From Patescibacteria group bacterium (lineage in GTDB: Bacteria; Patescibacteriota; JAQUNI01): a stretch of DNA of 64,000 nt. The notes beneath the pieces were generated by a model, which saw nothing but the letters and a program-made list of their open reading frames with translations, was not told where the DNA came from and searched no databases. The DNA lies in contig JAQUNI010000001.1 in NCBI GenBank assembly GCA_028717685.1, forward strand, positions 548,062 to 612,061, in the 5' to 3' direction. The translations under genes were made by a program, and so were the position numbers. This document shows positions 656 to 63,609 of this stretch, in pieces (positions within the stretch are counted from its first letter, which is position 1; each line of letters opens with the position of its first letter).

Positions 656-1672
656 TTATAGCATTTTCTGTTTGCGGGGAACAATATTTAAGTGCTCATA
701 AGCAAGATGGGTGGCAATTCTGCCGCGCGGGGTGCGGGTCAATAAACCCGCTTGCAATAAAAATGGTTCGTGCACATCTTCAATCGCGTCTTGTTCTTCG
801 GAAGAAGAAGCGGAGAGGGCATTCAAACCCACTGGTCCCCCGTCAAATTTTTCAATAATCACTTTCAATAGTTCGCGGTCAATGTGGTCTAAGCCTAACT
901 TATCAATTTCCAGCATAGCCAGGGCGGCTTCAACCACCTCCAGATTAATAAAACCGTCTGTTTTCACTTCGGCGTAATCGCGCACTCTTTTTAAGAGCCG
1001 ATTGGCGATTCTGGGCGTGCGGCGCGAACAGCAGGCAAGTTTTTTCAGAGCCGCCTTTTCTATCTTTTGCACTTTTAAGATGCGGCTCGCGCGCGCGATG
1101 ATTTGTTCAATCTCCTCTACTTCATAATAGCGAAGGCGATAAACCGAGCCGAAACGGTCGCGCAAAGGTGAGGAGAGCATACCGATTTTGGTGGTCGCGC
1201 CGATCAGGGTGAAACAGTTCAAGGGGAGGCGGATGTTTTTAGCCGAAGGTCCTTTGCCGATAATAATATCCAAAACCTGCTCTTCCATCGCGGGATATAG
1301 AATTTCTTCAATTTGGCGATTCATGCGGTGGCACTCATCAATAAAGAGGATGTCGCCATCTTCAAGATTAGTCAAAATCGCGCCCAAATCGCCGGGACGC
1401 TCTAGCGCAGGTCCGGAAGTAGTTTTAATCGCTACCCCCATTTCCCACGCGATGATATTGGCAAGGGTAGTTTTTCCTAAGCCTGGCGGTCCGTACAAAA
1501 GGATGTGCTCCAAAGGTTCTTTCCTTTTTTTTGCCGCGGCTAAAAAGATTGCCAGACTTTCTTTGATTTGAGCTTGACCAATGTATTCTTTAATAGTTTG
1601 CGGTCTAAGTTTTAAATCAAGATTTTTGTCTTCATTTTTTTCAGTATGGGAGACGACTGGACTTAATGGCAT
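656..1672 (-). CDS. ruvB: Holliday junction branch-migration ATPase RuvB
   Basis: 338 aa with Walker [12 protein letters not shown] and Walker [11 protein letters not shown]; length and overall layout match RuvB. Confidence 0.95.
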
Positions 1673-1701
1673 TTTGGTTTGGATTTAAACCTGTTCATTA
1701 T

Positions 1702-1730
1702 ATTATACAATTGATTTTGCGCATTGACAA
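1702..1730 (-). promoter_or_regulatory. Candidate sigma70 promoter for ruvB
   Basis: Minus strand reads TTGTCA (rc of 1725-1730), a 17-nt spacer, then TATAAT (rc of 1702-1707), about 25 nt upstream of the ruvB ATG. Confidence 0.4.
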
Positions 1731-1760
1731 AGATTTGTTTTGGATTTTCTCCGTAAGGGC

Positions 1761-1789
1761 TTGACAGGAAATTTTAACTGTGCTAATGT
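1761..1789 (+). promoter_or_regulatory. Candidate sigma70 promoter (TTGACA-17-TAATGT) driving the structured region that follows
   Basis: TTGACA at 1761-1766, exact 17-nt spacer, TAATGT at 1784-1789. Confidence 0.4.
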
Positions 1790-1796
1790 ACAGTGT

Positions 1797-2190
1797 TCGT
1801 CTGTAAACCCCGTTAGAGAATGAAGTTTTTTACCCCGCTTAGAAATTTATTTCTAACGGGGCTGACGGTGGCATTAAACCACCATTGGCGTCTCCAATGG
1901 GGTAAAGATGGTGCTTCTTAATCTGTAGGCGGTTTTGAAGAAGGGCTAATCTTTCTGCGATGGATATTTATAAAGCGCGAGTTACCCCTCACCTTTTGAG
2001 GATTTACTTTACATATAAAGGAAGTAAATGGTTTTGTTTTATCTTAGATCAAATTATTTGATCCTTAAAAGGTGGGGGGGGCAGACTTGCCTTATCCTCG
2101 GGGATTAGCCTTGCTCTCAAGTAGACTTGGGGGCGCACGTCTACAGATTAAGGGGCGTTATATCAGAGGTTTATGTTGTTGTTAAAATAA
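1797..2190 (+). ncRNA. Candidate structured RNA or long structured 5' leader, ~400 nt, family unknown
   Basis: No ORF of 60 aa or more, and GC higher than flanking spacers. Many hairpins (ggtggcattaaaccacc; gatcaaattatttgatc; atttactt...aagtaaat). Long-range pairing of cttaatctgtag (1917-1928) with ctacagattaag (2140-2151). Includes a TTAGAA-N6-TTCTAA palindrome at 1839-1856. Confidence 0.25.
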
Positions 2191-2205
2191 CAAAGGAGGA
2201 TATGA

Positions 2206-2400
2206 ATGATAAGAAACGGGACGATAGTTGATTTTATATTGTTGTCATGTTGGAATGGTGGGCTTTATGCTATTTTTGCCATTATTATATGGCAGTTGTT
2301 TAAAAAACACTTGAAGCTTCCTCAAGGAAGATGGGGAATGATTATAATGGATATAATCATTTTGGCACCCGTTGCCCTGTTTGTTTATCACTTGAGATAG
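2206..2400 (+). CDS. Small hydrophobic protein, 64 aa, two predicted TM helices
   Basis: Strong RBS AAGGAGG 8 nt before the ATG; hairpin plus T-run terminator at about 2418-2452. Confidence 0.45.
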   Translation: MIRNGTIVDFILLSCWNGGLYAIFAIIIWQLFKKHLKLPQGRWGMIIMDIIILAPVALFVYHLR

Positions 2401-2443
2401 AAGCGAATTTTTATTTTATGACGGGGTCTACTCGTCATTTTTT

Positions 2444-4321
2444 TTATTCCTCCTCATTTGCTACAGGTGGATTCTTTTTTGCTTCTGTCGGTGGGGGCGG
2501 TTTTTTTTGTTGATTTTCTATTTTAGGCGGAGTATTTCCTTTTTGTTCGCCTTTAACATCAGTTCCGCCTGTGCCTACTAAGAATACGGCGTTCCAAGGC
2601 TGGTATTTAGAATAAAAACTATCACGCAGAATTTCCTGCCCATCACGGGTTACGGCGCGGTGAAAAACCGTGGAAATGCCCTTATGTTCCTTTTCTATTT
2701 GTTTTTTTTCTCCTTTTTTCAGGGTGTTGGTTTCAATGTATTCCGGCGGGCTCGGGTTAACCCACCCTGAAGTATAGTATGGACCTTCAATGTTCACCTT
2801 GCGGCCGTCGTCCGTGCCGTAAAAATCAAAATAGAGTTTATTGCCAATGATGCGTTTTTGAATCAAGATATGGCCCGGCGTGTCGTTTTTAAAACGCAGA
2901 TCTGGATGAGGAATGTAAATCGTGGCATCCATTCCGGTTGGTTTATAATAAGAGACGACATATTTATGGGCTTTGCGTTCCGTGATCGGCAGTCCAGAAT
3001 ATATAGCCGCGCGGAAGAGGGTGGTGGAGACTTGGCACAATCCCCCGCCAAATTCGGGAATCGTTCCCTCGGGTTTTATCACAAGTTCTGGCTTGTAGCC
3101 CGTAGCCGCCGATACTTCGCCTAAAGTTTGAATAATGGAGAATTCTTCGCCCGGTTCAATTAAAACACCGTTCAGTTTTTCCGAGCCGACGCCAATATTA
3201 TGTTTGCGGTTTAAAGGAGAACCGGCAAAGTCTGATTCTCCCGTACCAATCAAAGTTTTAATGCCGAGTTCATCAATATTTTGATTGCTTACATTGGGCG
3301 TGACCGTGCGCACTGTGATTTCCGTTTTTTTCTCGCTTCCTTCGGTTGGGGTTTGCAGGGCGTTTTTAATCAATTCCATGGTTTCTTCTAAATCAATCTT
3401 TTTGCCATCTTGCCCTAATTCAAAAGCAACGACGCGATTGTTGTCAATTTTAAAACGGGCATCTTCAGGTTCCTGTTCAATTTCAGCGGCAACATTTTTT
3501 AAAAAGGCATCCGCGGTTTCCCTTTTTAAACCTGCTTCCATCATTTTGTTTTGGTTTAGTTGAAAGTCAACCCAAGAAACAAGCATTTTTGGAGAAACAG
3601 TCCAATATTTTTTTTCATAAGTAAGTTTTAGAGGCTTTTGAATCATTTCCTCCGCCATATTATAAGCATCTAGGACATTGGCGCGAGTCACTTCAGGGTG
3701 GCTTTCTTTAATAACTACCTCAATTTTTTGATCCTGAAGATTATCTAAACTATTTTTAATTTTTTGCTTGAGTTCCGCGAGGTCTATCTCTTGACCGATT
3801 TTCTCTTCTTTGATTTCAAAACCAGAATTTTTCAAAATCACTTCCGCCATCTCCGGTTTTACTTCTAAGAACGTCAGATTATTTTTTAGATATTGATCCA
3901 ACTTATCCTCGTCTAGTTCATATCGCAGAGGCAGATTCACGCCCCGTATCAGAATCGCAAGTTGGCTTTTTAACCTTTGAACAATATCCTTTTCGTGGCC
4001 TAGGAGAAACGCTTCGTCTAAAGTTTGGTTCACCTTGAAGGTAAGTCCGATATCTTTTTCAGCCAGGGGCCATTCCCTTTCTTTATAGAAAATAGAGACC
4101 CCCTGATTTTGAAAATAGTTGATACGTTCTTGCAAGATGCTTTGCGCCTCATTTTTACTTTTACCTCCGAGATCCAAACCCGCCACTTTAATACGGGGGT
4201 AAATTTTTTCGGCATAAAAGAGATTCTGCGTTAAAATAAAAACGCCAAATACCAGAAGGATGATGATAGTGAAAAACAATGGGAGATTCAGTTTATTCTT
4301 ATTCCTTTTAGGTTTAGACAT
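2444..4321 (-). CDS. VanW-family protein with an N-terminal membrane anchor
   Basis: 625 aa. N-terminal TM segment; C-terminal region with GGGLCQVSTTLFRAA typical of the VanW domain; Pro/Lys-rich tail. Confidence 0.75.
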   Translation of the reverse strand: MSKPKRNKNKLNLPLFFTIIILLVFGVFILTQNLFYAEKIYPRIKVAGLDLGGKSKNEAQSILQERINYFQNQGVSIFYKEREWPLAEKDIGLTFKVNQTLDEAFLLGHEKDIVQRLKSQLAILIRGVNLPLRYELDEDKLDQYLKNNLTFLEVKPEMAEVILKNSGFEIKEEKIGQEIDLAELKQKIKNSLDNLQDQKIEVVIKESHPEVTRANVLDAYNMAEEMIQKPLKLTYEKKYWTVSPKMLVSWVDFQLNQNKMMEAGLKRETADAFLKNVAAEIEQEPEDARFKIDNNRVVAFELGQDGKKIDLEETMELIKNALQTPTEGSEKKTEITVRTVTPNVSNQNIDELGIKTLIGTGESDFAGSPLNRKHNIGVGSEKLNGVLIEPGEEFSIIQTLGEVSAATGYKPELVIKPEGTIPEFGGGLCQVSTTLFRAAIYSGLPITERKAHKYVVSYYKPTGMDATIYIPHPDLRFKNDTPGHILIQKRIIGNKLYFDFYGTDDGRKVNIEGPYYTSGWVNPSPPEYIETNTLKKGEKKQIEKEHKGISTVFHRAVTRDGQEILRDSFYSKYQPWNAVFLVGTGGTDVKGEQKGNTPPKIENQQKKPPPPTEAKKNPPVANEEE

Positions 4322-4476
4322 AAAATCAACTTTATTTTAAAACTAAAACTATGAAGCGTTTTTTCGAGCTGCGGTTTAAAATTCTACGCTTTGCGTTTTT
4401 GTTATTTACCCCGTTATAGAACTTCGTTTTCTAACTATACTATACTATAACGAAAAGATGCTTTTTTTTCAAATTT

Positions 4477-4506
4477 AAAACCCTCTTTCCAAATAAAGAG
4501 GGTTTT
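4477..4506 (-). terminator. Hairpin terminator downstream of the 894-aa membrane/TPR gene
   Basis: Perfect 11-bp stem aaaccctcttt / aaagagggttt with a 6-nt loop, immediately 3' of the stop at 4547 on the minus strand. Confidence 0.5.
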
Positions 4507-4546
4507 GTTCGTTATTCATTCGTTATAATTTTTGGAAATCCAGTTT

Positions 4547-7231
4547 CTAGAGTTTGGATTCTAAATCTTGGACTTTTTGCCTGATCTGTTCATTATCCGG
4601 ATTAAGTTCCTGAACCCTTCGAATATTTTCTAAGGCTTTACCAATTTCACCCAGACTTTCATAAGCTAAGCCTAGACTATAGAGAGCATTTGCGTGGTTG
4701 GCATTTTGACTGACCACGAGATTGAAGGCATCCAGGGCGCGTTGGAAATCCAAGTTGTTTTTTAAGTCATTATGATCTCCGACCATTGCTTTATTGTAGG
4801 AAACGCGGCCTAATTCATAAATGATATCTTGATTTTGGGGAGCAATTTGATACGCGGCGCCGATTTGTTCTAAGGCTTCGTCAAACTGTTTTTTGTTTTC
4901 ATAAATCAGGGCAAGATAATAATGGGCGGCAAGGTAGTCTGGCTTTAATTCCACCGCCTTTTTGAAAGCTTCCAGAGCCTGATTATAGTTATTTTCCTGT
5001 TCTTCGCCTTCTGCCGTGGAAGCGGAAACCATATAGGCGCGTCCGAGTTTCGCTAAAAAGGTGGGATTCGTCGGCTCCAATTCCAGCGCTTTTTCATAAG
5101 ACTTAATCACCCATTCATTGGCGTTTCGCGAGTAGAGAGTTGTGTTTTCGTAGATTTGACCCCGAGCTTCCCATAGATTGACATCGCTAGGGGAAAGATC
5201 GGTAGCGAGTTTGGATTCGTTGATGCTATTGGCAACCAGGGTTTGAATTTGGTTAATGTCCGCCGCTTCTCCCTTGGCGGCTTCTAAATTAGCTTGGGTC
5301 AAGTAGTTTTGGGCTAGGGCTAAATAGTATATCGGTCGGTATTTGTTTAGCGTGACGGCACGGTTAAAGAGGCCGGTAGCTTCACTGTATTTTTCCGCGG
5401 CAATTTTCTCTAATCCTTGTTGATGGTAGACGTCCGCCAGATAAATTCTTCCAAGGTAAGTGAATAAAACCGTAACCATACAAAGGGCTAACACAAAGAT
5501 AAAAGAGAGAAACAGCGCGTATTTGGGCGAAGTCTTAAAGGAAAGCTTTGTTTTTTTAAATTCTTGGGGGCGATAGATAGTAATGAGGGCCATAATCAAC
5601 CCCATAGAGAGCCAGAAAGAAATTTGCAGCGTGGTGTTGGCGAAATTTAAGAAGTTAGCGAGCAACAGAGCCGCCCAAGCGCCTACGATACCTAAGATAA
5701 TAAAATCAGCATGCGGTTCGGGGCGCGCTATCTCTTCCTCCTCCTCTTCCTCTTCGTCTTCTTTGATTGTTCTAGTTTTTAAATCCACGACTCCTTTAGA
5801 TGATGGGGGGGGGAAGATTTTCCTTCCTGTTTTAAGGTTAATATTAATGTTCCGCGGTTCTTCCGTGGCTGGGAGGGCAGCCTCTCTCTCAATATTTGGG
5901 AGTTCTATTGGTGTTGGAGTTGTTGTTTCAGTCCTTTGTTTATTAGTGTTGCCAGAATCTATTATTTTTTCCGGGGGAGGGTTTAGGGTCGCGGATTTGT
6001 GAAACAAAGCAAATCTTGATTTTAAGAGGGATTGATGAGGAGGCAACGTTGTTTTTTGGGGCTTATTATTTATTCCAAAAAGATACTCTCTTCTTGATTT
6101 GATTAATAGGAGGCTGGAGGATCCAATAAAAATCAGAAGAATCACAATATAGGTTAATGCTCCTAAAGCGCCGCTGGTAGCTAAAAGTTCCAGATAGGTG
6201 TTATTGGCTTTGTCAAAACGGACATTCCAGATGATATTTTGGTTAAAGCTGGCTGGTCGGAAGCTTGAAAAATCATAACCGAAAGTCTCTGGACCGGAAC
6301 CGAAAAGAAAATTAAAGAAACCATGCCAGAGGGTATGGCGAGTAGTTTCCAAGGAAAGTTTAAAGCTTAGAGAAACCTCACTAGGTATCTTCCCTTTAAT
6401 AATAGAGGGAATACCCAATGTAGTGGCGAAAATAGCAATAACGAGGATAGCCGCGGGCACGATTAACCATCCTTTGTTAATATATTCTTTTTCCTTGGCG
6501 ATGCCGAAACTCAAGATAATAAACATACTTAGGATAAGGATATGCCAGGCTATTTTGAAATTAATCGTGTTGAGCAGAATAAGCGCAGCTAAAACCAAGA
6601 TTAAGATCAAGATTCTAAAGACGATATTCATTTTGGGCTTGAGTAGAAAAGCGGCGGCGATACTTAAGACAAAGGCGAGAAAGGTTACAAGCGACGAGAA
6701 GGAGCCTACGGGGTTGAAGGAAATGTTTTTCGCAAATTCAAAAGGCAGAATGAAGATATTAAAGATTTGGAGAAAAACAAAAACAATTAAAATAGTGGTA
6801 GAGATGAGAAGGCTTATACAAAGCCGCAATACTTTTTTGCGGCTGTTCACATTACTTACTATGATGAAATACAGAAGGGCGTAAAAGATAACACTTACCA
6901 AGCCCGTGGCGCCTTGGCCGTAAGCGCCTAAAATACTCGTTACGCGGTCCACCGAAAAAATGGTCGCCAGTCCATACACAATTAAAAAGGCTAGAATGGG
7001 AATATCCAGGGGGGTCCGTTTAATAATAAGTTTTTTGTTTAAAATTCCCTTGCCAAACCAAGCGAGATATCCAATCAGAACAGTAACAAAGAAAAGGACC
7101 TGTTTGGAGAATTCGGTGAGCTGCGGCGTAAAAGGAAGAAAAAAGAGGGGAACCGAAAAGGTCAACAAAATTAATACCCAAAGAATAATGTGGTCACAAA
7201 CAGAAGAAATCTTGTTTTGGATTGTAATCAT
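4547..7231 (-). CDS. Polytopic membrane protein (O-antigen-ligase-like N-terminal region) with a poly-Glu linker and C-terminal TPR repeats
   Basis: 894 aa. About 10 predicted TM helices in the N-terminal 400 aa. Poly-Glu run EEEEEEEEE. C-terminal TPR-like repeats such as YYLALIYENKKQFDEALEQ and ALYSLGLAYESLGEIGKALEN. Confidence 0.6.
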   Translation of the reverse strand: MITIQNKISSVCDHIILWVLILLTFSVPLFFLPFTPQLTEFSKQVLFFVTVLIGYLAWFGKGILNKKLIIKRTPLDIPILAFLIVYGLATIFSVDRVTSILGAYGQGATGLVSVIFYALLYFIIVSNVNSRKKVLRLCISLLISTTILIVFVFLQIFNIFILPFEFAKNISFNPVGSFSSLVTFLAFVLSIAAAFLLKPKMNIVFRILILILVLAALILLNTINFKIAWHILILSMFIILSFGIAKEKEYINKGWLIVPAAILVIAIFATTLGIPSIIKGKIPSEVSLSFKLSLETTRHTLWHGFFNFLFGSGPETFGYDFSSFRPASFNQNIIWNVRFDKANNTYLELLATSGALGALTYIVILLIFIGSSSLLLIKSRREYLFGINNKPQKTTLPPHQSLLKSRFALFHKSATLNPPPEKIIDSGNTNKQRTETTTPTPIELPNIEREAALPATEEPRNININLKTGRKIFPPPSSKGVVDLKTRTIKEDEEEEEEEEIARPEPHADFIILGIVGAWAALLLANFLNFANTTLQISFWLSMGLIMALITIYRPQEFKKTKLSFKTSPKYALFLSFIFVLALCMVTVLFTYLGRIYLADVYHQQGLEKIAAEKYSEATGLFNRAVTLNKYRPIYYLALAQNYLTQANLEAAKGEAADINQIQTLVANSINESKLATDLSPSDVNLWEARGQIYENTTLYSRNANEWVIKSYEKALELEPTNPTFLAKLGRAYMVSASTAEGEEQENNYNQALEAFKKAVELKPDYLAAHYYLALIYENKKQFDEALEQIGAAYQIAPQNQDIIYELGRVSYNKAMVGDHNDLKNNLDFQRALDAFNLVVSQNANHANALYSLGLAYESLGEIGKALENIRRVQELNPDNEQIRQKVQDLESKL

Positions 7232-7864: not shown

Positions 7865-7890
7865 CCGTTAGAAATAAATTTCTAACGGGG
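7865..7890. promoter_or_regulatory. GC-clamped palindrome ccgTTAGAAATAAATTTCTAAcgggg, a TTAGAA-N6-TTCTAA element
   Basis: Perfect 8+2+8 inverted repeat at 7868-7885. It abuts the stop of the PrsW-like gene and lies about 90 nt upstream of the hsp20 ATG. Confidence 0.4.
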
Positions 7891-8589
7891 CTAGCGGGAT
7901 TTACTATTGAGTTGGGCTTTTTTCCCTTTCAGGCCTTTGATCAGCTGATTTAAAGTGATAAAAATACCGAGGAGCAAGATGATTAGGAAGGGGATAGTCA
8001 TATTCAGTCTCAACGTAATCATAAAATTGTAGGCTCCATGGATGATGATGGCAATTAAAAGCCCGCGCAGGATTAGCTTTTTTTCCTCTTTCGGGTTAAA
8101 GCGGGCGCGACCTAAGTAATATCCGACAATACCAGAGGTTAAGGCATGCATTAGGGTGGCGGTAAAAAAGCGGAAGAGAATAATAGAAGGACCGCTGCCT
8201 AAGGTGGCCATCAGATTTTCCAGGGAAGCGAAGCCTAGACCCGCGACCGTGCCATAAATGATCCCGTCCAATCGTTCGTCAAATTCAGGGCGGCGGTAAA
8301 CCTTTCTTTTGATGACAAGATATTTTAAATACTCTTCCACCGGCGCAATCACGAGAAAAGTCCCCCAGATAATTTGACCGATGCTATTATTATCCGAGTA
8401 AGGCATAATGTAGTCCACGATAAATTCCAAGGCGGCTGCCGGTATGGTCATCAACATACCCCAGATGAAGATTTTAAAGACGAGCTTTAAGGGTTCCGGC
8501 TCTTCACGATCCTTGCGGCGATAAAAAATAAGCCAAAAAATTCCCGGCGAGAGCGCGATCAAGATGTAGAATAAAAGTCGCATAATCAA
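7891..8589 (-). CDS. PrsW-family intramembrane metalloprotease
   Basis: 232 aa polytopic protein carrying the PrsW signature motifs EEYLK, FASLEN, HALTSG and HGAYN. Confidence 0.7.
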   Translation of the reverse strand: MIMRLLFYILIALSPGIFWLIFYRRKDREEPEPLKLVFKIFIWGMLMTIPAAALEFIVDYIMPYSDNNSIGQIIWGTFLVIAPVEEYLKYLVIKRKVYRRPEFDERLDGIIYGTVAGLGFASLENLMATLGSGPSIILFRFFTATLMHALTSGIVGYYLGRARFNPKEEKKLILRGLLIAIIIHGAYNFMITLRLNMTIPFLIILLLGIFITLNQLIKGLKGKKAQLNSKSR

Positions 8590-11666: not shown

Positions 11667-11738
11667 TACCGCCACGGGGAATCGAACCCCGGTTTCAAGG
11701 ATGAAAACCTTGTGTCCTAACCACTAGACGATGGCGGC
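11667..11738 (-). tRNA. tRNA-Glu (anticodon TTC)
   Basis: rc is GCCGCCATCGTCTAGTGGTTAGGACACAAGGTTTTCATCCTTGAAACCGGGGTTCGATTCCCCGTGGCGGTA. Cloverleaf with anticodon loop TTTTCAT, T-loop GGTTCGATTCC and a 7-bp acceptor stem; CCA not encoded. Confidence 0.85.
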
Positions 11739-11974
11739 ATAGCAAGTGCAAAATTTAAAAATCCAAATTTAAAATTTAGGTAAATATACAAAGTGACTTT
11801 AGCATAGAGATTGAAATTTTTCAATAATTAAGATAGCGTGTAGATAAGTAATTTTTAATTTTGATTTTTTGATTTTTAGCTAATTTTTATTGAATTATTG
11901 TATTATTGTCTTGCTTATGATGGCAATAAAAATTAAGCAAATAAAAATTAGTTAAAAATTAAGAATTAAAAATT

Positions 11975-14742: not shown

Positions 14743-14863
14743 AATGTAGAAAGGTAAAATGTAAAGCGAAAAGTTTAAAGCAAAAATTCAAAATGCAAAA
14801 TATAAATATAGAAACACTAATTTATTTTACGCTTTTATTATACTCTTTTTATGGAAAACAAAA

Positions 14864-26105: not shown

Positions 26106-27143
26106 ATGAGAATTGTTGAAATAAATCAAAAAGAAGAGTTGAACAATTTTATTGTTCAGTATGGAGGCAGTAATTTTTTGCAATCTTGGGAATGGGGAGA
26201 GTTGCAAAAGAATTTAGGTAGAGACATCTGGCGCGTGGGGATAGAAGAAGCGGGAAAATTAGTTTTTTCCGCTTTGATTATCAAAAATAGACTGCCTTTG
26301 GGCAGGAGTTATTTGTATTGCCCGAGGGGACCGGTTTTTGAAAATTCAAAATTTAAAATTCAAAATTTAAAATTAGTTGGTTGGAAGCTGTTGTCAGAGA
26401 AGATAAGAGAAGTAGCTCAAAAAGAAAGAGCAGTTTTTTTCCGTTTTGATTATCCTGATTTACACTTGCCAGAGTTTCTGAAAGGCAAGGTTGTTCAATC
26501 TCCCAAGGATATTCAACCCAGAAGCACTTTAATTTGGGATATTACAGGGTCAGAAGAAGAAATTTTAGCCCAGATGAAGCCTAAAACGCGCTATAATATT
26601 CGTCTAGCGCAAAGAAAGGGGGTACGCGTCAGGCAAGGCGTAGAACAGACAGATTTAAATATTTTTTTAAGCTTAATTAAAGAAACCTCGCAAAGAGATG
26701 GATTTAAGATTCATCCGGAGTTTTATTATCAAAAAATGGTGGATTTTTTGGGTAAAGAAGGGATTTTAAAGATTTTTTTGGCTGAATTACAAGAAAAGGT
26801 TTTAGCCGCAAATTTAGTTTTGTTCTGGGGCGAGCGAGCGACCTACTTGCACGGCGCCTCGGGTAATGCGAATCGCAATGTGATGGCGCCGCACCTTTTG
26901 CAATGGGAACAGATTAGAGAGGCAAAACGGTTTGGTTGCAGGGAATATGATTTTTGGGGAATCATGTCGGAATTAGGAATCAGGAATCAGGAATTAGGAA
27001 TAAAGACCAATGATGAGCAGAGTTCTTGGGTAGGTATTACCAGATTTAAGAAGGGTTTTGGGGGCAGGGAAGTCAATTATGCCGGCACTTATGATTTCGC
27101 GCTTAATCATTCTTGGTATAAAATATATCGCCTATTTAAATGA
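26106..27143 (+). CDS. FemAB-family peptidoglycan interpeptide-bridge peptidyltransferase
   Basis: 345 aa with the FemX-like motif KPKTRYNIRLAQRKGV. Two in-frame low-complexity insertions are encoded by 7-nt tandem repeats at 26340-26376 and 26969-27004. Confidence 0.65.
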   Translation: MRIVEINQKEELNNFIVQYGGSNFLQSWEWGELQKNLGRDIWRVGIEEAGKLVFSALIIKNRLPLGRSYLYCPRGPVFENSKFKIQNLKLVGWKLLSEKIREVAQKERAVFFRFDYPDLHLPEFLKGKVVQSPKDIQPRSTLIWDITGSEEEILAQMKPKTRYNIRLAQRKGVRVRQGVEQTDLNIFLSLIKETSQRDGFKIHPEFYYQKMVDFLGKEGILKIFLAELQEKVLAANLVLFWGERATYLHGASGNANRNVMAPHLLQWEQIREAKRFGCREYDFWGIMSELGIRNQELGIKTNDEQSSWVGITRFKKGFGGREVNYAGTYDFALNHSWYKIYRLFK

Positions 27144-44166: not shown

Positions 44167-44202
44167 TTAGAAGTTGCTTTCTAATATTTCGTGGGTTATA
44201 AT
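44167..44202 (+). promoter_or_regulatory. recA promoter (TTGCTT-17-TATAAT) overlapped by the palindrome TTAGAAGTTGCTTTCTAA
   Basis: -35 TTGCTT at 44174-44179, -10 TATAAT at 44197-44202. The TTAGAA-N6-TTCTAA palindrome at 44167-44184 spans the -35, the classical position for a repressor operator. Confidence 0.45.
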
Positions 44203-49317: not shown

Positions 49318-50160
49318 ATGTCCAGAGAAAGATTAACAATTACCATTAACAAACGACTCATCGGCTTATTAGACGATTTTATTGACGGTGAGAAGATCCG
49401 CAACCGTTCGCACGCGATTGAGTATCTTTTGAGTAAAACGCTGGCGCCCAAGGTTTCGCGCGCGATTATTTTAGCGGGTGGCCAAGGCTTAAAAATGCGG
49501 CCTTTTACCTATGAAATGCCGAAGTGTTTGATTCCAGTGCGCGGCAAACCTCTTCTCGAGCACACTTTGGATTTATTAAAGAAATATGAAATCCGCGACA
49601 TTGTGATTACGATCGGACACCTGGGAGAGAAGGTGCGGAATCATTTTGGCGACGGCTCGCGGTTCGGGGTAAAAATTACCTATGCGGATCAAGGAGAGGG
49701 TTTTCGGGGGACGGGCGGCGCTTTGAAGGTGGCAAGGAATCTAGCGGGACATCCTTTTTTGCTTTTCTATGGAGACGTCTTAGCAAATATTGATTTAAAT
49801 GATTTGATTGACTTTCATAAAAGCCATGGCAAAACAATGACGATGGCTTTAACGAGCGTGGAGGATTCATCGGTTTGGGGAGTGGTGCAGCTTCACGGCT
49901 CCCAAATCCGGGATTTTGTGGAAAAGCCTAAACAGAGCCAGAGATTATCGCGGCTTATCAACGCAGGGATTTATGTCGTGGAGCCTAAGATTTTTGATTA
50001 TTTCCCCGGAAAAAATATTTTTCGCCTGGAAGAAGATGTTTTCCCAAAGCTCGCGCAAAGCGATGAACTATATGGCTATCCTTTTGAGGGGCAATGGTTT
50101 GACATTGGCACGCCTGAAATTTACGCGCGGGTGATTAAGGAGTGGAACGGGATCAAATAA
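49318..50160 (+). CDS. Sugar-1-phosphate nucleotidylyltransferase with an N-terminal ribbon-helix-helix (CopG-like) domain
   Basis: Residues 1-45 (ERLTITINKRLIGLLDDFIDGEKIRNRSHAIEYLL) match the RHH beta-alpha-alpha pattern. The remainder is an NTP-transferase fold (ILAGGQGLKMRP…, GTGGAL, YGDVL). Just upstream, a hairpin ctccccc/gggggag includes the RBS. Confidence 0.7.
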   Translation: MSRERLTITINKRLIGLLDDFIDGEKIRNRSHAIEYLLSKTLAPKVSRAIILAGGQGLKMRPFTYEMPKCLIPVRGKPLLEHTLDLLKKYEIRDIVITIGHLGEKVRNHFGDGSRFGVKITYADQGEGFRGTGGALKVARNLAGHPFLLFYGDVLANIDLNDLIDFHKSHGKTMTMALTSVEDSSVWGVVQLHGSQIRDFVEKPKQSQRLSRLINAGIYVVEPKIFDYFPGKNIFRLEEDVFPKLAQSDELYGYPFEGQWFDIGTPEIYARVIKEWNGIK

Positions 50161-50250
50161 ATGAAAAATTGTCTCGCTATGCGAGATCTGGCGGAGCCAG
50201 AAAAATGAAAAATGCAAAATTGCAATGCAAAATTAAAAATTGAATAAGAG
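50161..50250. repeat. Composite palindromic intergenic repeat element, copy 2 (reverse orientation relative to copy 1)
   Basis: AATGAAAAATTGTCTCGCTATGCGAGATCTGGCGGAGCCAGAAAAATGAAAAATGCAAAATTGCAATGCAAAATTAAAAATTGAATAAG. The core differs from copy 1 at about 4 positions. Confidence 0.55.
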
Positions 50251-54001: not shown

Positions 54002-54086
54002 ATCTCAAAAGTTAAAAGTATCATTCTGAATTTTTTATTGTAGTTAAGATTTGAGTTTTGATTTTTGAGTTTTGAGTTTATGTTAG

Positions 54087-54171
54087 TGCTGGGAGGGAGA
54101 TTTGAACTCCCATGGTATTGCTACCGCTAGCCCCTGAAGCTAGTGCGTCTGCCAAATTTCGCCATCCCAGC
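54087..54171 (-). tRNA. tRNA-Leu (anticodon CAG)
   Basis: rc is GCTGGGATGGCGAAATTTGGCAGACGCACTAGCTTCAGGGGCTAGCGGTAGCAATACCATGGGAGTTCAAATCTCCCTCCCAGCA. 85 nt with a long variable arm and anticodon loop TTCAGGG. Confidence 0.85.
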
Positions 54172-54339: not shown

Positions 54340-56202
54340 TTATTCGTCTTGGCGTAAGAGTTGCCTTTTTTGTTCTGTATACCAGTAGGATAGTCCCGCA
54401 AAACGTTCGTAAGGGAAGACGACCTTTTCACTTTCAATACCTTTGATTTTTTTATTGACGCCGCAGAGATAGATGGATCTGTAGAGAGGAATAACTGGTA
54501 TTTCTTGATTTAATATTTGTTCTAATTTTTTGTAATCTTCTTGCTGTAAGATCGGGTCATCGATAGTTTTTAGTTCTTCTAGAATTTTATCCGCTTCTGT
54601 GTTTTCAAAAGAAGCTAAGTTTAATCCGGGGTCGCGGATTTGCGAAGAATGCCAAAAGATATAAAGATCAGGATCGTGGACTAACACTTCTCCGTAGATG
54701 AGGGCGTCAAAATTACGCGGTCGGATATATTCTTGTTGAATTTTTGCCGTATTATAGGATTCCGTGATCAGTTCAATTCCCACTTGTCTGTAGGCGGTTT
54801 TTAGAATTTCCGCGGTTTGGACATATTCCGTCCAATCCGTAGTCACAAGAGTAAAACTTAAACGGTCTTTACCTTTAGCATATATTCCATCCGTCCCTTT
54901 TGTCCAGCCCTCTTTTTCTAAAATTTGCTCTGTTTCTTGGGGGTTAAACTCCCGTTTGGTAAGATTTTCTACATCCCTCGGGGCTGAAGCCCTTTCGGGA
55001 CTGAAGTCTGCCAAGAGAAGGGGGGAGTAGGTTATTTGTCCGGCGTCTGCGATAGCTTCCTCAATAATTTGTTTCTTTGGGGTCGCATATTCTAAGGCTT
55101 CGCGAATATACTTCTCTTTAAATAATTTATTGCGGTTTGGATTTAGAAATATAGAATATATATGAGGCAATTCTAGAGAGTAGAGATTTAGAAAGTCGTT
55201 ATTAGCAAGTTTATTTTTATATCCTTTAGGAATATAGCCCGTTCCATCAATCTGGCGGCTTTGCAGATCTGAAAGTAGAGTATCAAAATCGGGATAGAAT
55301 TGGAAATTTAGTTTTTCTAGATAGGGCTTCAGACCATAATAATTAGGGTTCGGCTTTAAGGAGTAGGATTCAATGCCGCCTTCTTTGTTTTTTTTAAGTT
55401 TGTAAAATTGCCATGGTCCAGAGCCGATTGGTTTTAGATTATATTCAGATAAAGGGGCGTTCGCCGAGGGGATTGTTTCCCAGATATGCATGGGCAGGAT
55501 GCCAAAGGTGAGCATGGAAAGAAAGGGAGCATAGGGTTCTTTGAGGGTAAACTTAAGTTTTAATGCGTCGATTTTTTCCATTTCTACGCTCAAAAAACTT
55601 GAGCGCAGGGGGCTTTTAAAGTCCGGGTCTTGAATTCTGTGAATGGTGAAAATAATATCGTCAGTAGTCAAAGGCTCGCCATCCTGCCAGATGAGGTTAG
55701 GCTTTAACGTGAATGTATAGGTCTTTTTATCCTCTGAAATTTCATAATCTCGGGCTAAGTCTGGAACCAATTCCTGTTTGTCATTATAAATCATTAAGCC
55801 GGAAAAGATGAGGTAGGCGAGATCCATATCAATGTCGTTGGTTTGGGCCAGAATAGGATTCACGTATTTAGGCTGACCTACTAGCCCCTCGGTATATTGC
55901 CCCCCTTGGGCTGGCACTAATTTGGAGTGCTTCAGATAATAGATATCTATCCAAAAGACAACACTGGCAAGAATGATGCCGCTTAAGATAAAGATCACGA
56001 TCCGCTCCCAAGGTTTCAAGGTGCGGGGGATATTAGCAATCTGTTTTAATTTAGGAATGCGGATTTTCTTTGATTCTTCTTTAGAAAAAAAGGAAGTCCG
56101 CAGGGGGCGGATTTGTTTTAGGCCATCCAGGGATTTTTTGAAGAGAGAGGAGGAAGAAAGATTAGAGGATACTTCTTTCTCTTTTTCCCCGATTTTGGAC
56201 AT
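54340..56202 (-). CDS. ABC transporter substrate-binding protein, family 5 (oligopeptide/nickel type), membrane anchored
   Basis: 620 aa with an N-terminal TM anchor after a Ser/Lys-rich segment; length and composition typical of SBP_bac_5. Confidence 0.7.
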   Translation of the reverse strand: MSKIGEKEKEVSSNLSSSSLFKKSLDGLKQIRPLRTSFFSKEESKKIRIPKLKQIANIPRTLKPWERIVIFILSGIILASVVFWIDIYYLKHSKLVPAQGGQYTEGLVGQPKYVNPILAQTNDIDMDLAYLIFSGLMIYNDKQELVPDLARDYEISEDKKTYTFTLKPNLIWQDGEPLTTDDIIFTIHRIQDPDFKSPLRSSFLSVEMEKIDALKLKFTLKEPYAPFLSMLTFGILPMHIWETIPSANAPLSEYNLKPIGSGPWQFYKLKKNKEGGIESYSLKPNPNYYGLKPYLEKLNFQFYPDFDTLLSDLQSRQIDGTGYIPKGYKNKLANNDFLNLYSLELPHIYSIFLNPNRNKLFKEKYIREALEYATPKKQIIEEAIADAGQITYSPLLLADFSPERASAPRDVENLTKREFNPQETEQILEKEGWTKGTDGIYAKGKDRLSFTLVTTDWTEYVQTAEILKTAYRQVGIELITESYNTAKIQQEYIRPRNFDALIYGEVLVHDPDLYIFWHSSQIRDPGLNLASFENTEADKILEELKTIDDPILQQEDYKKLEQILNQEIPVIPLYRSIYLCGVNKKIKGIESEKVVFPYERFAGLSYWYTEQKRQLLRQDE

Positions 56203-59659: not shown

Positions 59660-62500
59660 ATGCCGAAGAAAATTATTATCCGCGGGGCGCGGGTGCATAA
59701 TCTAAAAAATATCAATCTAGAGATTCCACGAGATAAATTAGTGGTTTTTACTGGTTTGTCCGGCTCGGGAAAGTCCTCGCTTGCCTTTGATACGATTTAT
59801 GCCGAAGGTCAGCGCCGTTATGTGGAGAGTCTATCCGCTTACGCGCGGCAGTTTTTAGGTTTAATGGATAAGCCGGATGTGGATCAAATCGAAGGATTAT
59901 CACCAGCGATTTCCATTGATCAGAAATCCGCTTCCTCTAATCCGCGGTCTACAGTGGGCACGATTACTGAAATTTACGATTACTTACGTTTGCTATTCAG
60001 CCGCGTCGGCAAACCTCATTGCCTTTCCTGTGGCAAGCCGATTACCGCCCAGACAGCGAGCCAGATTACAGACAAGATTCTTGCCCTTCCTCGCGATTCT
60101 CGGGTAATTATTTTAGCCCCCTTGGTGCGCGATCGCAAAGGCGAACATAAACGGGAAATGGCAGAGATTCAAAGAGCAGGGTTTGTGCGGGTGCGTTTAG
60201 ATGGAGTGATATTAGAATTGGAAGAGGCGCTTCAGGGCAATATTAATCCTAAAAAGAAACACACTTTAGAGATTGTGGTGGATCGGCTAGAGATCAGTGG
60301 AAACAAAGAAAACAGAGAGCGGGTTGCCGATTCCATAGAGACAGCATTAAATTTAGGCAATAGTTTAATTATTGTGCATAATCTGAACACCAGTGAGGAC
60401 TTGATGTTTTCAGAAAATTTTGCCTGCCCGGAATGCGGCTTAAGTCTGCCTAGCTTAGAACCGCGCGATTTTTCTTTTAATTCGCCGCACGGCGCCTGCC
60501 CGGAATGTACTGGTCTTGGCACTAAGTTAGAGGTTGACCCTCTCTTAGTGATTCCGAATAAAAGGCTTTCTATTTATGAGGGCGCGATTCGGCCCTGGGC
60601 AAGGAGCGCTTCGCGCAATGGTTGGTATATTCAGATGTTGGAAGCAGTGGCTTCTTATTACGGTTTTTCCTTGAGCACCCCTGTGGCAGGGCTTAAAAAA
60701 AAGGATCTGGAGATTATCCTTTATGGGACTGCCGATACCCGCATTCCTACCGCGTTTAAAAGAGATTATCGTTATTTGCAAGCCGAAATTCCTTTTGAAG
60801 GGGTGATCCCTAATTTGGCTCGGAGATATCAGGAGACAGAATCTGATTATGTGCGCCGTGAGATTGAAAAATATATGCGCATTTATCCTTGCCCCACTTG
60901 CAATGGTATGCGTCTCAAAAAAGAAATTTTAGGGGTAAAGATTATGGGGCGTTCCATTGTGGATATTGCGCAAAAGGACATTGCTGAAGCCATAACTTTC
61001 TTCCAAAATTTAGAAAAGGATTTAAACGCTCGGGATAAAATTATCGCTAAGCAGATTTTAAAAGAGATCCGCGCCCGTCTTTCTTTTTTGCAAAATGTGG
61101 GTCTTTCTTATTTAACTTTGGATCGGCCGGCAGCCTCCTTGGCGGGCGGCGAATCCCAAAGAATCAGGCTCGCAACCCAGATCGGTTCTGCTTTAGTCGG
61201 CGTGCTTTATATTCTGGATGAACCCTCTATTGGTTTGCATCAAAAAGACAATGTGCGCTTAATTGAAACCTTAAAAAAATTGAGAGATCAGGGTAACACG
61301 GTAATTGTAGTGGAACATGATGAAGAAATGATTTTAAACGCCGACTTTATCGTGGATATCGGACCAGGGGCGGGGAGAGAAGGCGGGGCAATCGTCGCTT
61401 GTGGAACACCGGCAGAGATTAAAAGGAACAAACGTTCTCTTACGGGTCAATATTTAAGCCGTCATCTGGAGATTCCCTTGCCTCAAAAATATCGTCCTGG
61501 AAGCCACAAAAAAATCACCATTTATGGCGCTTCGGCGCATAATTTAAAAGAGATTACCGCGGAGATTCCTTTGGGCAAGCTAGTTTGCGTTACCGGCGTT
61601 TCGGGTTCGGGTAAATCCACTTTAATCTGCGATATCTTGGCGCGGTCCTTGGCTCAATATTTTTATCGCGCCCGCACCCTACCGGCTAAACATAAGAAGA
61701 TCACGGGTTTTTCATATCTGGACAAAGTGATCAGTATTGATCAATCACCGATTGGCCGCACTCCGCGTTCCAACCCGGCGACTTATACTGGCGCATTCAC
61801 CCACATCCGTGATCTTTATGCGGCAACTCAGGAGGCCAAAATTCGAGGTTATCGCGCGGGTCGTTTTAGTTTTAATGTGAAAGGAGGTCGGTGCGAGGCC
61901 TGCCGGGGTGAGGGTTTAGTCAGGATTGAAATGCAGTTTCTGCCGGATGTGTATGTGGAATGCGAAGAATGTAATGGCACCCGTTACAACAAAGAAGCCC
62001 TGGAGATTTATTACAAAGATAAAAATATCGCTGATGTTTTAAAAATGACCGTGGCAGAAGCTTTGCAGTTTTTCCGCAATGTGCCAGCGATATATCAAAA
62101 ATTAATAGTTTTATGCGATGTGGGTTTGGATTATATTCAGTTAGGTCAACCTGCACCTACTCTTTCTGGCGGCGAAGCGCAAAGAGTGAAACTCGCTAGC
62201 GAACTCGCGCGGCGCGCTACAGGGAAGACCCTGTATATTTTAGATGAACCGACCACGGGTTTGCATTTTCACGATGTGGGAAGGCTGTTGGCGGTTTTAA
62301 ACCAACTGGTGGATAAAGGCAATACGGTTTTGGTGATTGAGCATAACTTAGATGTCATCAAATCCGCGGATTGGATTATTGATTTGGGACCGGATGGCGG
62401 GGAGGCGGGCGGCTATCTTGTAGCGGCAGGCACGCCGCGCCAAGTCGCCAAAGTGAAAGCAAGTTATACGGGACAGTTCTTGAAGAAATACTTTCAATAA
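59660..62500 (+). CDS. uvrA: Excinuclease ABC subunit A
   Basis: 946 aa with duplicated ABC ATPase modules (two Walker [19 protein letters not shown], signature LSGGE) and zinc-finger CxxC pairs. Confidence 0.97.
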
Positions 62501-62649
62501 TTTTTAATTTTTAATTCTGAATTTTAAATCAAATCCAAATTTTAAATTCTTAATTTTAAAACTTTTTTTTCTTCGTTTTAAACTTTAAAATTCAAGCATT
62601 TAAAATTGATTTAAAATTAAAAATTTATAATTTAAAATTTTATTTAAGG

Positions 62650-63609
62650 ATGAAAGCTGGTATTCAAAAAAATATCTTATACACTCTCACCTTTTTTGAT
62701 TTGATTGGCAAACCTTTGACCATTTTTGAGTGTTGGCAATATCTTTTTAATGTCTTTCCCTTGAAATCCGGAGCAAGCATTATAGAGATAGAGAGTATTC
62801 TTCGGAAACATCCGAAGGTAGCAAATTTTCGTGGTTTTTATTTTTTGAAAGGCCATAGAGGGTTAGTGGACAGAAGGCGGAGAGAACATAATTTTTCTCA
62901 AGTTAAATGGAAGAGAGCGCGCCGCGCCGCCCGTCTTTTGTCTTATGTGCCCTTTGTGAGGATGGTCGCGGTCTGTAATACCGTGGCTTTTGATACAGCC
63001 GGAAAAGGAAGTGATATTGATTTTTTAATTTTAGTCCAGAACGGAAAAATGTGGACTACCCGCTTTGCGGTTACTTTTCTCGTCTCCTTTCTGGGCCTTA
63101 GAAGACATCATCGCAAAATCGCTGACCGCATTTGCCTGTCTTTTTATTTAGCGGACAATTGTTTGGATTTAAGAAGAGTGGCTTTAAGGAAAGAAAATGG
63201 CGCGATTAATGATCCTTATTTAGTTTATTGGACGAGTAAGGTGAGTCCTGTTTACGATGAAGGGAGGGGAAAATCTTTTTTATTACAAAACAATTGGATG
63301 CGTAAATATCTTCCAAACTATATTCCTTATTCGGGAGTAGGGAGGCGCGTTATTCAAAATAATCTTCCAAAAAAGATTTGGAAAAAAAGCATAGAATGGT
63401 TATTGTGTTCAATTTTTGGCAATTTAGGCGAAGATATTTTAAAGAAATTACAACTCGCTAAAATGTCACACAATACCAAAAGCGTGGCGCGCGAACAAAA
63501 TACGAAAGTGATTATTTCGGATCAAATCCTGAAATTTCACGAACGGGATTTAAGGGGGTTTTATCAAGAGGGGCTTGACAAGAAATTTAATTTTGCTAAA
63601 ATAATTTAG
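62650..63609 (+). CDS. Nucleotidyltransferase-fold (Pol-beta superfamily) protein of unknown function
   Basis: Minimal NTase signature GKGSDIDFLIL (GS…DxD) at about residue 115, a possible third acidic site near LADNCLD, and a basic Arg-rich segment. Confidence 0.4.
   Translation: MKAGIQKNILYTLTFFDLIGKPLTIFECWQYLFNVFPLKSGASIIEIESILRKHPKVANFRGFYFLKGHRGLVDRRRREHNFSQVKWKRARRAARLLSYVPFVRMVAVCNTVAFDTAGKGSDIDFLILVQNGKMWTTRFAVTFLVSFLGLRRHHRKIADRICLSFYLADNCLDLRRVALRKENGAINDPYLVYWTSKVSPVYDEGRGKSFLLQNNWMRKYLPNYIPYSGVGRRVIQNNLPKKIWKKSIEWLLCSIFGNLGEDILKKLQLAKMSHNTKSVAREQNTKVIISDQILKFHERDLRGFYQEGLDKKFNFAKII

Follow-up and report, generated by a model that had tools for sequence, protein, structure and literature searches.

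A candidate structured RNA gene with a 6S-like outline in the ruvB-VanW spacer of Doudnabacteria-like bacteria

Here we describe a candidate gene for a structured non-coding RNA (ncRNA) in a 64-kb stretch of DNA from a Patescibacteria group bacterium (contig JAQUNI010000001.1; the whole stretch of 64,000 nucleotides (nt) is called the window). We put at roughly 0.6 the probability that positions 1910-2159 of the window, read on the + strand, are the gene for a stable structured ncRNA of an uncatalogued family; that they form a stand-alone structured ncRNA gene appears very likely from the comparisons given below. The RNA is ~250 nt long in the window and 165 nt in its shortest relative, and its gene lies between ruvB and a convergent VanW-like gene, transcribed divergently from ruvB. 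An earlier description of this DNA, made without database searches (the sequence-only reading), had treated about 400 nt as one structured unit. The conserved part proved to be the ~250 nt at 1910-2159, for which that claim stands, whereas 1796-1909 is a lineage-specific insertion missing in the related locus L004. The other features it had pointed out in the stretch were all found. Within 1790-2205 there are just mechanical open reading frames (ORFs) of 33-37 amino acids (aa), none of them conserved, and the GC fraction is 0.39-0.44 across the RNA region as against 0.26-0.34 in neighbouring spacers. Folding of 1795-2205 gave -164.5 kcal/mol on the + strand (z = -10.65, with none of 100 shuffles as good) and -118.5 kcal/mol on the - strand (z = -6.8); since this gap between the strands arises from G-U pairs, the RNA would be read from the + strand. 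A reported 12-bp complementarity between 1917-1928 and 2140-2151 is real and proved to be the middle part of a longer, 22-bp helix (1910-1931 with 2138-2159), and a run of eight G is present at 2074-2081.

Searches with blastn and nhmmer found the region in two further loci; across the unit as a whole, identity is 79% in L003 and 72% in L004. As the window, L003 and L004 all have a VanW-like gene next to the unit, more homologues were sought via this gene, and the RNA core was recovered, by nhmmer and then by a covariance model, in L036-L038 (VanW identity 65%), L039/L040 (56%), L044 (55%), L041 (54%), L045 (42%) and L046 (40%). In total there were nine distinct sequences from about eight lineages, single-copy in each. 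In position, the homologues fall between ruvB and either the VanW-like gene or further genes that have been inserted next to the latter; in L046, ruvB is absent from the syntenic position, and in L036 the contig stops short of an identifiable next gene. The covariance model (R1), built with the apex of the long arm trimmed, matched L046, which was not in its seed, with 71 bits (E ~1e-16), and the reverse strand scored much lower under the model (in L045, for example, 27.8 bits against 90.7 bits forward). No match to the model was obtained in L047/L048, L049/L050, L042, L005 or L021. Scanning of metagenomes with a transition-tolerant pattern (mixed plain and R/Y) returned only the L003 and L004 lineages, a scan of viral_contigs with a 20-mer of the RNA core gave no match, and a genome scan based on RuvB yielded only two close relatives and otherwise unrelated phyla. 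RuvB of the window is 96% identical to that of L003, a metagenome-assembled genome (MAG) labelled Candidatus Doudnabacteria, and 90% identical to that of a second MAG, L004. The RNA appears to belong to a small clade of Doudnabacteria-like bacteria of the Candidate Phyla Radiation (CPR) and to constitute a narrow family so far. Among the sources of the DNA are the samples of SRR22315509, SRR22315506 and JGI Ga0265296.

The structure covaries among the homologues. In an alignment made by MAFFT from sequence only, 92.2% of the cells were paired and 21 of 69 pairs showed compensatory changes; shuffled controls gave 6.8 ± 2.0 such pairs, with 0 of 500 reaching the observed count, and slid registers gave 4-7. 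The model-fitted alignment, which includes L046, had 93.8% of its cells paired and compensatory changes at 28 of 67 pairs (shuffles 9.7 ± 2.5; slid registers 6-12), and RNAalifold applied to the untrimmed alignment found them at 25 of 71 pairs. Compensatory changes were present in every helix.

The proposed structure of 1910-2159 has six helices and one three-way junction, in which a closing helix (P1), a long arm (P2 to P5) and a short 3' hairpin (P6) meet (Table 1). While outer P1 covaries, its inner 9 bp (UCUGUAGGCG / CGUCUACAGA) are nearly sequence-invariant. The joining strand J1/2 has 5-12 unpaired nt across lineages, reading GUUUUGAAGA in the window and UUUUAC, CUUAC or CAAAC in others. 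Helices 2-5 are 78-99% paired, with compensatory changes in each. Nearly all internal loops of the long arm (4, 1, 7, 1 and 1 nt) fall on its 5' strand (1942-1993); the 3' strand (2071-2112) is highly conserved and interrupted solely by a 4-nt loop G(G/C)CA, which is GGCA (2080-2083) in the window. The apex of the arm varies freely: L003 and L004 have ~110 nt there, and L036 and L045, in which the whole RNA is 165-170 nt, have no more than a 3-nt loop. The base of the apex changes from TTTT/AAAA in the window to CAGA/TCTG in L003. Of the nine pairs of P6, 4-5 are compensatory and 92-95% of cells are paired, L045 and L046 having a different stem with a larger loop. Thus a core of 165-175 nt (L036, L045; 175 positions in model R1) is enlarged by insertions at the tip to 250-290 nt.

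Some parts of the RNA are constant beyond what pairing asks for. These are inner P1 (UCUGUAG-CG / CG-CU-CAG), the CCCC/GGGG core of P5, the ACU in the 3' strand of P4, the UA-AC motif (P6 loop) and the G-C pairs on both sides of the junction; at the latter, alignment A6 has pairs 21-272 (C-G), 22-271 (G-C) and 36-237 (G-C), each in 9 of 9 sequences. Outer P1, P2, P6 and the apex, on the other hand, covary freely. As helices that are able to covary (inner P1, P5 and the 3' strand of P4) stay invariant, the RNA would have a partner that reads its sequence, most simply a protein.

The promoter named in the sequence-only reading is present upstream, and its architecture recurs in front of all homologues but one. 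It carries an extended -10 TG at 1781-1782, and the -10 hexamer keeps T1, A2 and T6; a consensus scan did not list it because this hexamer fits TATAAT at just 3 of 6 positions. Including the spacer, the promoter is invariant across the window, L003 and L004 (alignment A1), and TTGAC(A/T)-17-TG-n-TAnnnT stands upstream of the RNA in L039, L041, L044, L045 and L046 although the surrounding sequence differs. L036, with a weaker version, is the sole exception among the lineages. With its perfect -35 and extended -10, it looks like a strong sigma-70-type promoter, and the transcript would start at ~1796. The leader between this start and P1 is not conserved (~10-115 nt across lineages), being ~10-75 nt and unrelated outside the window, L003 and L004. 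At the other end, the 3' strand of P1 is followed directly by U7 in L036, L039 has a U-rich run, and a terminator hairpin distinct from the RNA stands 20-40 nt past it in L041, L044, L045 and L046. No gene was called downstream on the RNA strand in L036, L039, L041, L045 or L046. As these distant homologues lack a downstream gene and bring their own terminator or U-run, the RNA is taken to be an independent gene and not a leader, with a separate transcription unit of roughly 190-330 nt in most lineages.

Table 1. Positions of the proposed RNA, its helices and flanking elements in the window.
Feature	Position	Strand	Remarks
ruvB promoter-like site	1702..1730	-	TTGTCA-17-TATAAT, 11/12; outside the RNA, context only
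RNA promoter	1761..1789	+	-35 TTGACA 1761-1766, 17-nt spacer, -10 TAATGT 1784-1789
5' leader domain with hairpins	1796..1909	+	lineage-specific; in window and L003, absent from L004
Palindromic element CCCCGCTTAGAAATTTATTTCTAACGGGG	1833..1861	+	dispersed repeat, no conserved part of the RNA
P1, closing helix	1910-1931 with 2138-2159	+	22 bp; 96% of cells paired; 9-10 pairs compensatory
J1/2, joining strand	1932-1941	+	single-stranded 5' strand of junction/'bubble'; alignment A6
P2, base of long arm	1942-1953 with 2101-2112	+	
P3	1958-1966 with 2093-2100	+	
P4	1974-1983 with 2084-2092	+	
P5	1985-1993 with 2071-2079	+	
Apex of long arm	1994-2070	+	freely variable; 77 nt in window
P6, hairpin on 3' side of junction	2113-2121 with 2126-2134	+	GCUCUCAAG-UAGA-CUUGGGGGC, loop 2122-2125
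Linker	2160..2205	+	poorly conserved; small A/U-rich hairpin and Shine-Dalgarno AGGAGG 2194-2199
Small ORF	2206..2400	+	64 aa, hydrophobic, two predicted transmembrane segments
Intrinsic terminator	2418..2446	+	8-bp stem, 5-nt loop (hairpin 2418-2438), T8

We compared the RNA with known families. With Rfam 15 at gathering score, no family matched it in a search of the whole 64-kb window. Raising the E-value limit to 10 (window 1650-2480, L036 4930-5170 and L047 9815-10020) brought up nothing relevant, the sub-threshold matches being generic long-hairpin (miRNA-precursor) models or chance. The models for signal recognition particle (SRP) RNA, RNase P RNA and T-box gave no Rfam match at either gathering or E-value thresholds, and ARAGORN found no transfer-messenger RNA (tmRNA) in the window, in agreement with what the sequence-only reading had reported for all four. 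Among the candidates which that reading had offered, an unclassified structured ncRNA is therefore the one that has gained support, namely from covariation, a conserved promoter, stand-alone homologues and the absence of an Rfam family. Our literature searches turned up no description of this RNA or of any 6S-type RNA in CPR bacteria, and the literature on CPR, Patescibacteria, Saccharibacteria and Doudnabacteria yielded no trans-acting regulatory or other relevant structured RNA. Orphan structured ncRNAs of Rfam such as raiA, OLE, HEARO and ROOL likewise came from comparative genomics, being recognised by nothing but covariation and a GC content above that of the AT-rich spacers around them. 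The window RNA matches none of them; its range is a narrow CPR clade, and its architecture of six helices around a single junction is simpler. We would file it as a candidate for a new ncRNA family, 6S-like in outline.

What the RNA might do can be approached through its invariant parts and its outline. It would act in trans as a protein-binding RNA, a role that we consider fairly probable from the conservation pattern. The leading single mechanism, which we put forward tentatively and by analogy, is that of a 6S-like polymerase decoy, in which the RNA would bind RNA polymerase holoenzyme through the junction region, and a product RNA templated from J1/2 and inner P1 would begin ...AAAACCGCCUACAG. 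It is also conceivable, if again doubtful, that the RNA represents an unknown housekeeping RNA class of the ultra-small CPR bacteria, either a 6S counterpart with a three-way junction or the RNA subunit of an undescribed ribonucleoprotein. With 6S RNA (ssrS; RF00013) it shares transcription as a stand-alone RNA of ~170-200 nt from a strong promoter of the housekeeping kind, and a rod shape in which a closing stem is joined to a terminal arm whose tip varies; the core of 165-175 nt falls within the 150-200 nt expected of such an RNA. In the 6S consensus, conserved G-C pairs flank the bubble on both sides (PMC4064990), and the invariant G-C pairs on both sides of the junction, found in all nine sequences, match these. 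The ssrS gene lies within the 5' UTR (untranslated region) of ygfA (PMC4064990), and the window RNA is likewise predicted to be co-transcribed with a downstream ORF. The closing helix differs, being a perfect 22-bp duplex where that of 6S is irregular. Ms1, a functional 6S relative, escapes sequence and model searches and was found through synteny (PMC9130861). Like Ms1 of Actinobacteria, which binds the RNA polymerase core, the window RNA is clade-restricted, rod-like, unrecognised by 6S searches and traced by its neighbourhood; unlike it, it stands beside VanW and ruvB and not in a HAD hydrolase neighbourhood, and Ms1 is ~300 nt long.

Several observations weigh against the reading that we favour, most of them against its 6S-like part. 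RF00013 was missing even among the sub-threshold matches for the window, the minimal form of L036 and L047. The 3' side of what would be the bubble is occupied by P6, a stable covarying 9-bp hairpin with 0-3 flanking nt, so that a 6S-type bubble, single-stranded on both strands, is lacking and the RNA would qualify only if P6 opens. On the 5' side, several lineages have a single strand of just 5-6 nt, a short one for a mimic of an open promoter. As to covariation, the ~9 distinct sequences come from one clade, and fitting to the structure went into one of the alignments; moreover, the shuffle control overstates significance because, with shared ancestry, some compensatory changes were inherited together. 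Finally, in the lineage of the window the RNA may have a cis role for the ORF that follows it.

A second type of hairpin was seen in the VanW-ruvB spacer of L047 (9849-9960, - strand) and L048, where VanW identity is 41%. This 112-nt long hairpin has its own TTGACA-17-TATCAT promoter, of the same architecture as the RNA promoter, and a U-run; its 23-bp closing helix (CCUUAAUUCUGUAC / GUACAGAGUUAAGG) resembles P1, with a 10-nt bulge on the 5' side, and P6 is absent. With filters off, the model aligned only the closing helix of L047 (29 bits, about equal on both strands). Possibly the L047 hairpin is related to the RNA in a reduced form. The genes around the spacer vary as well. In L004, two genes of 562 and 108 aa (2603-4635) are inserted between the RNA gene and ruvB, and in L041, L042 and L044 a gene of 647-654 aa, transaldolase-like (TAL_FSA), adjoins the VanW-like gene; the RNA remains with the spacer while the neighbouring genes change.

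Long perfect duplexes are classical substrates of RNase III, as in the processing stalks of rRNA. The rod could accordingly be a precursor, from which RNase III or another nuclease frees one strand, with 2071-2112 as the candidate, which would then regulate by antisense pairing. Both P1, with its perfect 22 bp, and the long duplex arm would fit such a substrate, the loops are nearly all on the 5' strand while the 3' strand is continuous and highly conserved, and invariant paired regions would suit a strand that also pairs with a target. We nevertheless consider a precursor rather unlikely, since the apex and outer P1 covary as those of a functional folded RNA should and a search of the window brought up no convincing target. 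Outside the RNA, the top match was a 15-nt identity of the 5' strand of P1 at 54787-54801 in an SBP_bac_5 gene; since matches of at least 15 nt occurred in 68 of 1000 dinucleotide shuffles, it was treated as chance. The same OppA-like gene, which is on the opposite strand, matches the 5' strand of P1 at 15 of 15 positions at 54787-54801 and the 3' strand of P1 at 15 of 16 positions at 55446-55461, probably by chance.

Downstream of the RNA, the ribosome-binding site at 2194-2199, the 64-aa ORF with two transmembrane segments and the terminator with T8 are as the sequence-only reading had them. The terminator, at which the joint transcript of RNA and ORF would end, lies right against the stop codon of the convergent VanW-like gene and is kept in L003 and L004. 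The ORF itself was found only in the window, L003 and L004 (64, 61 and 59 aa) and in the near-identical copies of the latter, L031 and L033. Its insertions and deletions are multiples of three, and substitutions fall at third more than first, and at first more than second codon positions, being mostly exchanges among I, V, L and F; it looks like a real, fast-evolving small membrane protein. A search of 5.8 billion proteins returned only its own near-identical copy, and Pfam has no family for it. The RNA is conserved much better than the ORF (alignment A1).

Could the RNA then be a cis-acting 5' leader of this ORF, such as a riboswitch, a thermosensor or a translational control element? Terminator and promoter are absent between RNA and ORF in the window, L003 and L004, and RNAalifold pairs the conserved extreme 5' end (GUUCGUCU) with the Shine-Dalgarno region, for which L004 has a better anti-Shine-Dalgarno sequence, CCUCU, at the corresponding place. 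This pairing is based on three close relatives and contains mismatches. L044 also has a two-transmembrane ORF of 78 aa after the RNA (5078-5314, - strand), unrelated to the first and thus a second, independent small membrane protein downstream of the RNA; there, a terminator-like hairpin parts the two. The absence of a constant downstream gene speaks against a riboswitch-type leader, one of the candidates of the sequence-only reading: in L036, L039, L041, L045 and L046 the RNA is kept without an ORF, and where the ORF exists it is far less conserved than the RNA. A leader role as the general explanation is, in our judgement, unlikely. The simplest history suggested by the sequences is that a terminator was lost and a small ORF captured behind the strong RNA promoter. 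In the lineage of the window, the RNA would then be the 5' part of a bicistron-like transcript, presumably processed out of it or acting within it. The locus provides a small, clear example of the origin of dual-function transcripts, in which an ORF is gained after terminator loss.

A type I toxin-like small membrane protein with a regulatory RNA had been a further candidate of the sequence-only reading. In such a toxin-antitoxin-like module, a highly structured mRNA, as for hok or AapA1, and an antisense RNA would together keep a small hydrophobic toxin silent. As in the hok, AapA1 and TisB mRNAs, the window lineage has a long 5' region of great stability ahead of a small hydrophobic ORF, and a fold-back of the 5' end on the Shine-Dalgarno region can be drawn. 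The ORF, at 59-64 aa, is hydrophobic, fast-evolving and without homologues outside the lineage, its 5' UTR is long and structured, and an antisense promoter-like site lies inside the ORF (2368 to 2341, 10/12). However, L003 and L004 have lost the -35 of that site, and neither a conserved antisense promoter nor a conserved antisense RNA was found. The RNA is older than the ORF, and most lineages have it without the ORF; the locus has one copy, in a conserved, syntenic housekeeping neighbourhood, and the protein, with two transmembrane segments, is longer than most type I toxins. With the ORF so limited to one lineage, we regard such a module as a very unlikely account of the RNA.

Small CPR genomes keep few ncRNAs, and the genes for SRP RNA, RNase P RNA and tmRNA are all missing from the 64-kb window, so that a highly diverged form of one of them, missed by the models, was also considered. 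It is highly improbable: three homologues gave no Rfam match at E up to 10, ARAGORN gave no tmRNA, the apex is freely variable where domain IV of SRP RNA would sit, and the 165-nt minimal form is too small for RNase P RNA and lacks the P4 sequences of that RNA. Least credible is a non-functional palindromic repeat, a miniature inverted-repeat transposable element (MITE) or a chance hairpin, which the long hairpin-like inverted repeat and the dispersed palindromes of the window genome might suggest, given the compensatory substitutions, the strong G-U strand asymmetry, the conserved promoter and one window copy at the same syntenic position in all lineages. A repeat of MITE or repetitive extragenic palindromic (REP) type was rejected on the same count (one copy in the window, one per locus, always syntenic, with only the palindrome at 1833-1861 dispersed); being single-copy, syntenic and covarying, the RNA is not a MITE.

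That palindrome, whose core TTAGAA-N6-TTCTAA (1839-1856) the sequence-only reading had already seen, is a dispersed element of the leader, since copies recur at 7865-7893 in the window, at L003:7079-7113 and at L021:11408-11446, the last in a Paceibacterota MAG. The family consensus is CCCCG(C)TTAGAAATTTATTTCTAACGGGG, and a weaker window copy lies at 44167-44184, after an HD-domain gene. Outside the lineage of the window and L003, none of the fetched loci had an exact match to the core. In character the element resembles a mobile hairpin, REP-like or terminator-like. The copy at 7865-7893 lies between a PrsW-like gene and hsp20, and a heat-shock operator was considered for its position just upstream of hsp20. 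This was rejected as no other lineage has the palindrome upstream of hsp20, and it is further disfavoured by copies placed downstream of genes, such as that of L003 just downstream of ruvB.

Other repeats were observed in the window. A twin-hairpin module, ATTGTCTCGC-TTT-GCGAGA-TCTCGC-GAA-GCGA, occurs at 580-618 and 50168-50206, each copy just past a gene end (ruvB and the ORF at 49318-50160, respectively), and its second hairpin shows compensatory changes from TCTCGC/GCGA to TCTGGC/GCCAGA; it is probably a shared terminator module. AT-rich spacers (for example 515-580, 11743-11776, 14747-14823, 26333-26386 and 62497-62660) contain periodic A-tract units of ~7 nt (AAAATTC, AAAATGT), one repeat family having 17 copies, and may represent curved DNA or an UP-element-like promoter context typical of this genome. 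ARAGORN found tRNA-Leu(CAG) at 54086-54171 (- strand), and Rfam at gathering score found only tRNA-Glu at 11667-11738. The other window genes checked are housekeeping genes, among them those for TsaD, TsaE, PolA, UvrB, UvrC, RuvA, a Mur ligase, FtsK, PyrG, RpoB, RpoC and RNase J.

Genomes of CPR/Patescibacteria are ~1 Mb in size and have lost most regulators. Since so little regulation has been retained in such small genomes, an ncRNA that is conserved and strongly promoted likely does something basic. If it is only a lineage-specific small RNA, it is still a well-supported new entry for RNA family databases. Should the RNA prove to bind polymerase or to belong to another ribonucleoprotein, it would add a new architecture to a known functional class and open a first way into the global regulation of an uncultivated phylum.

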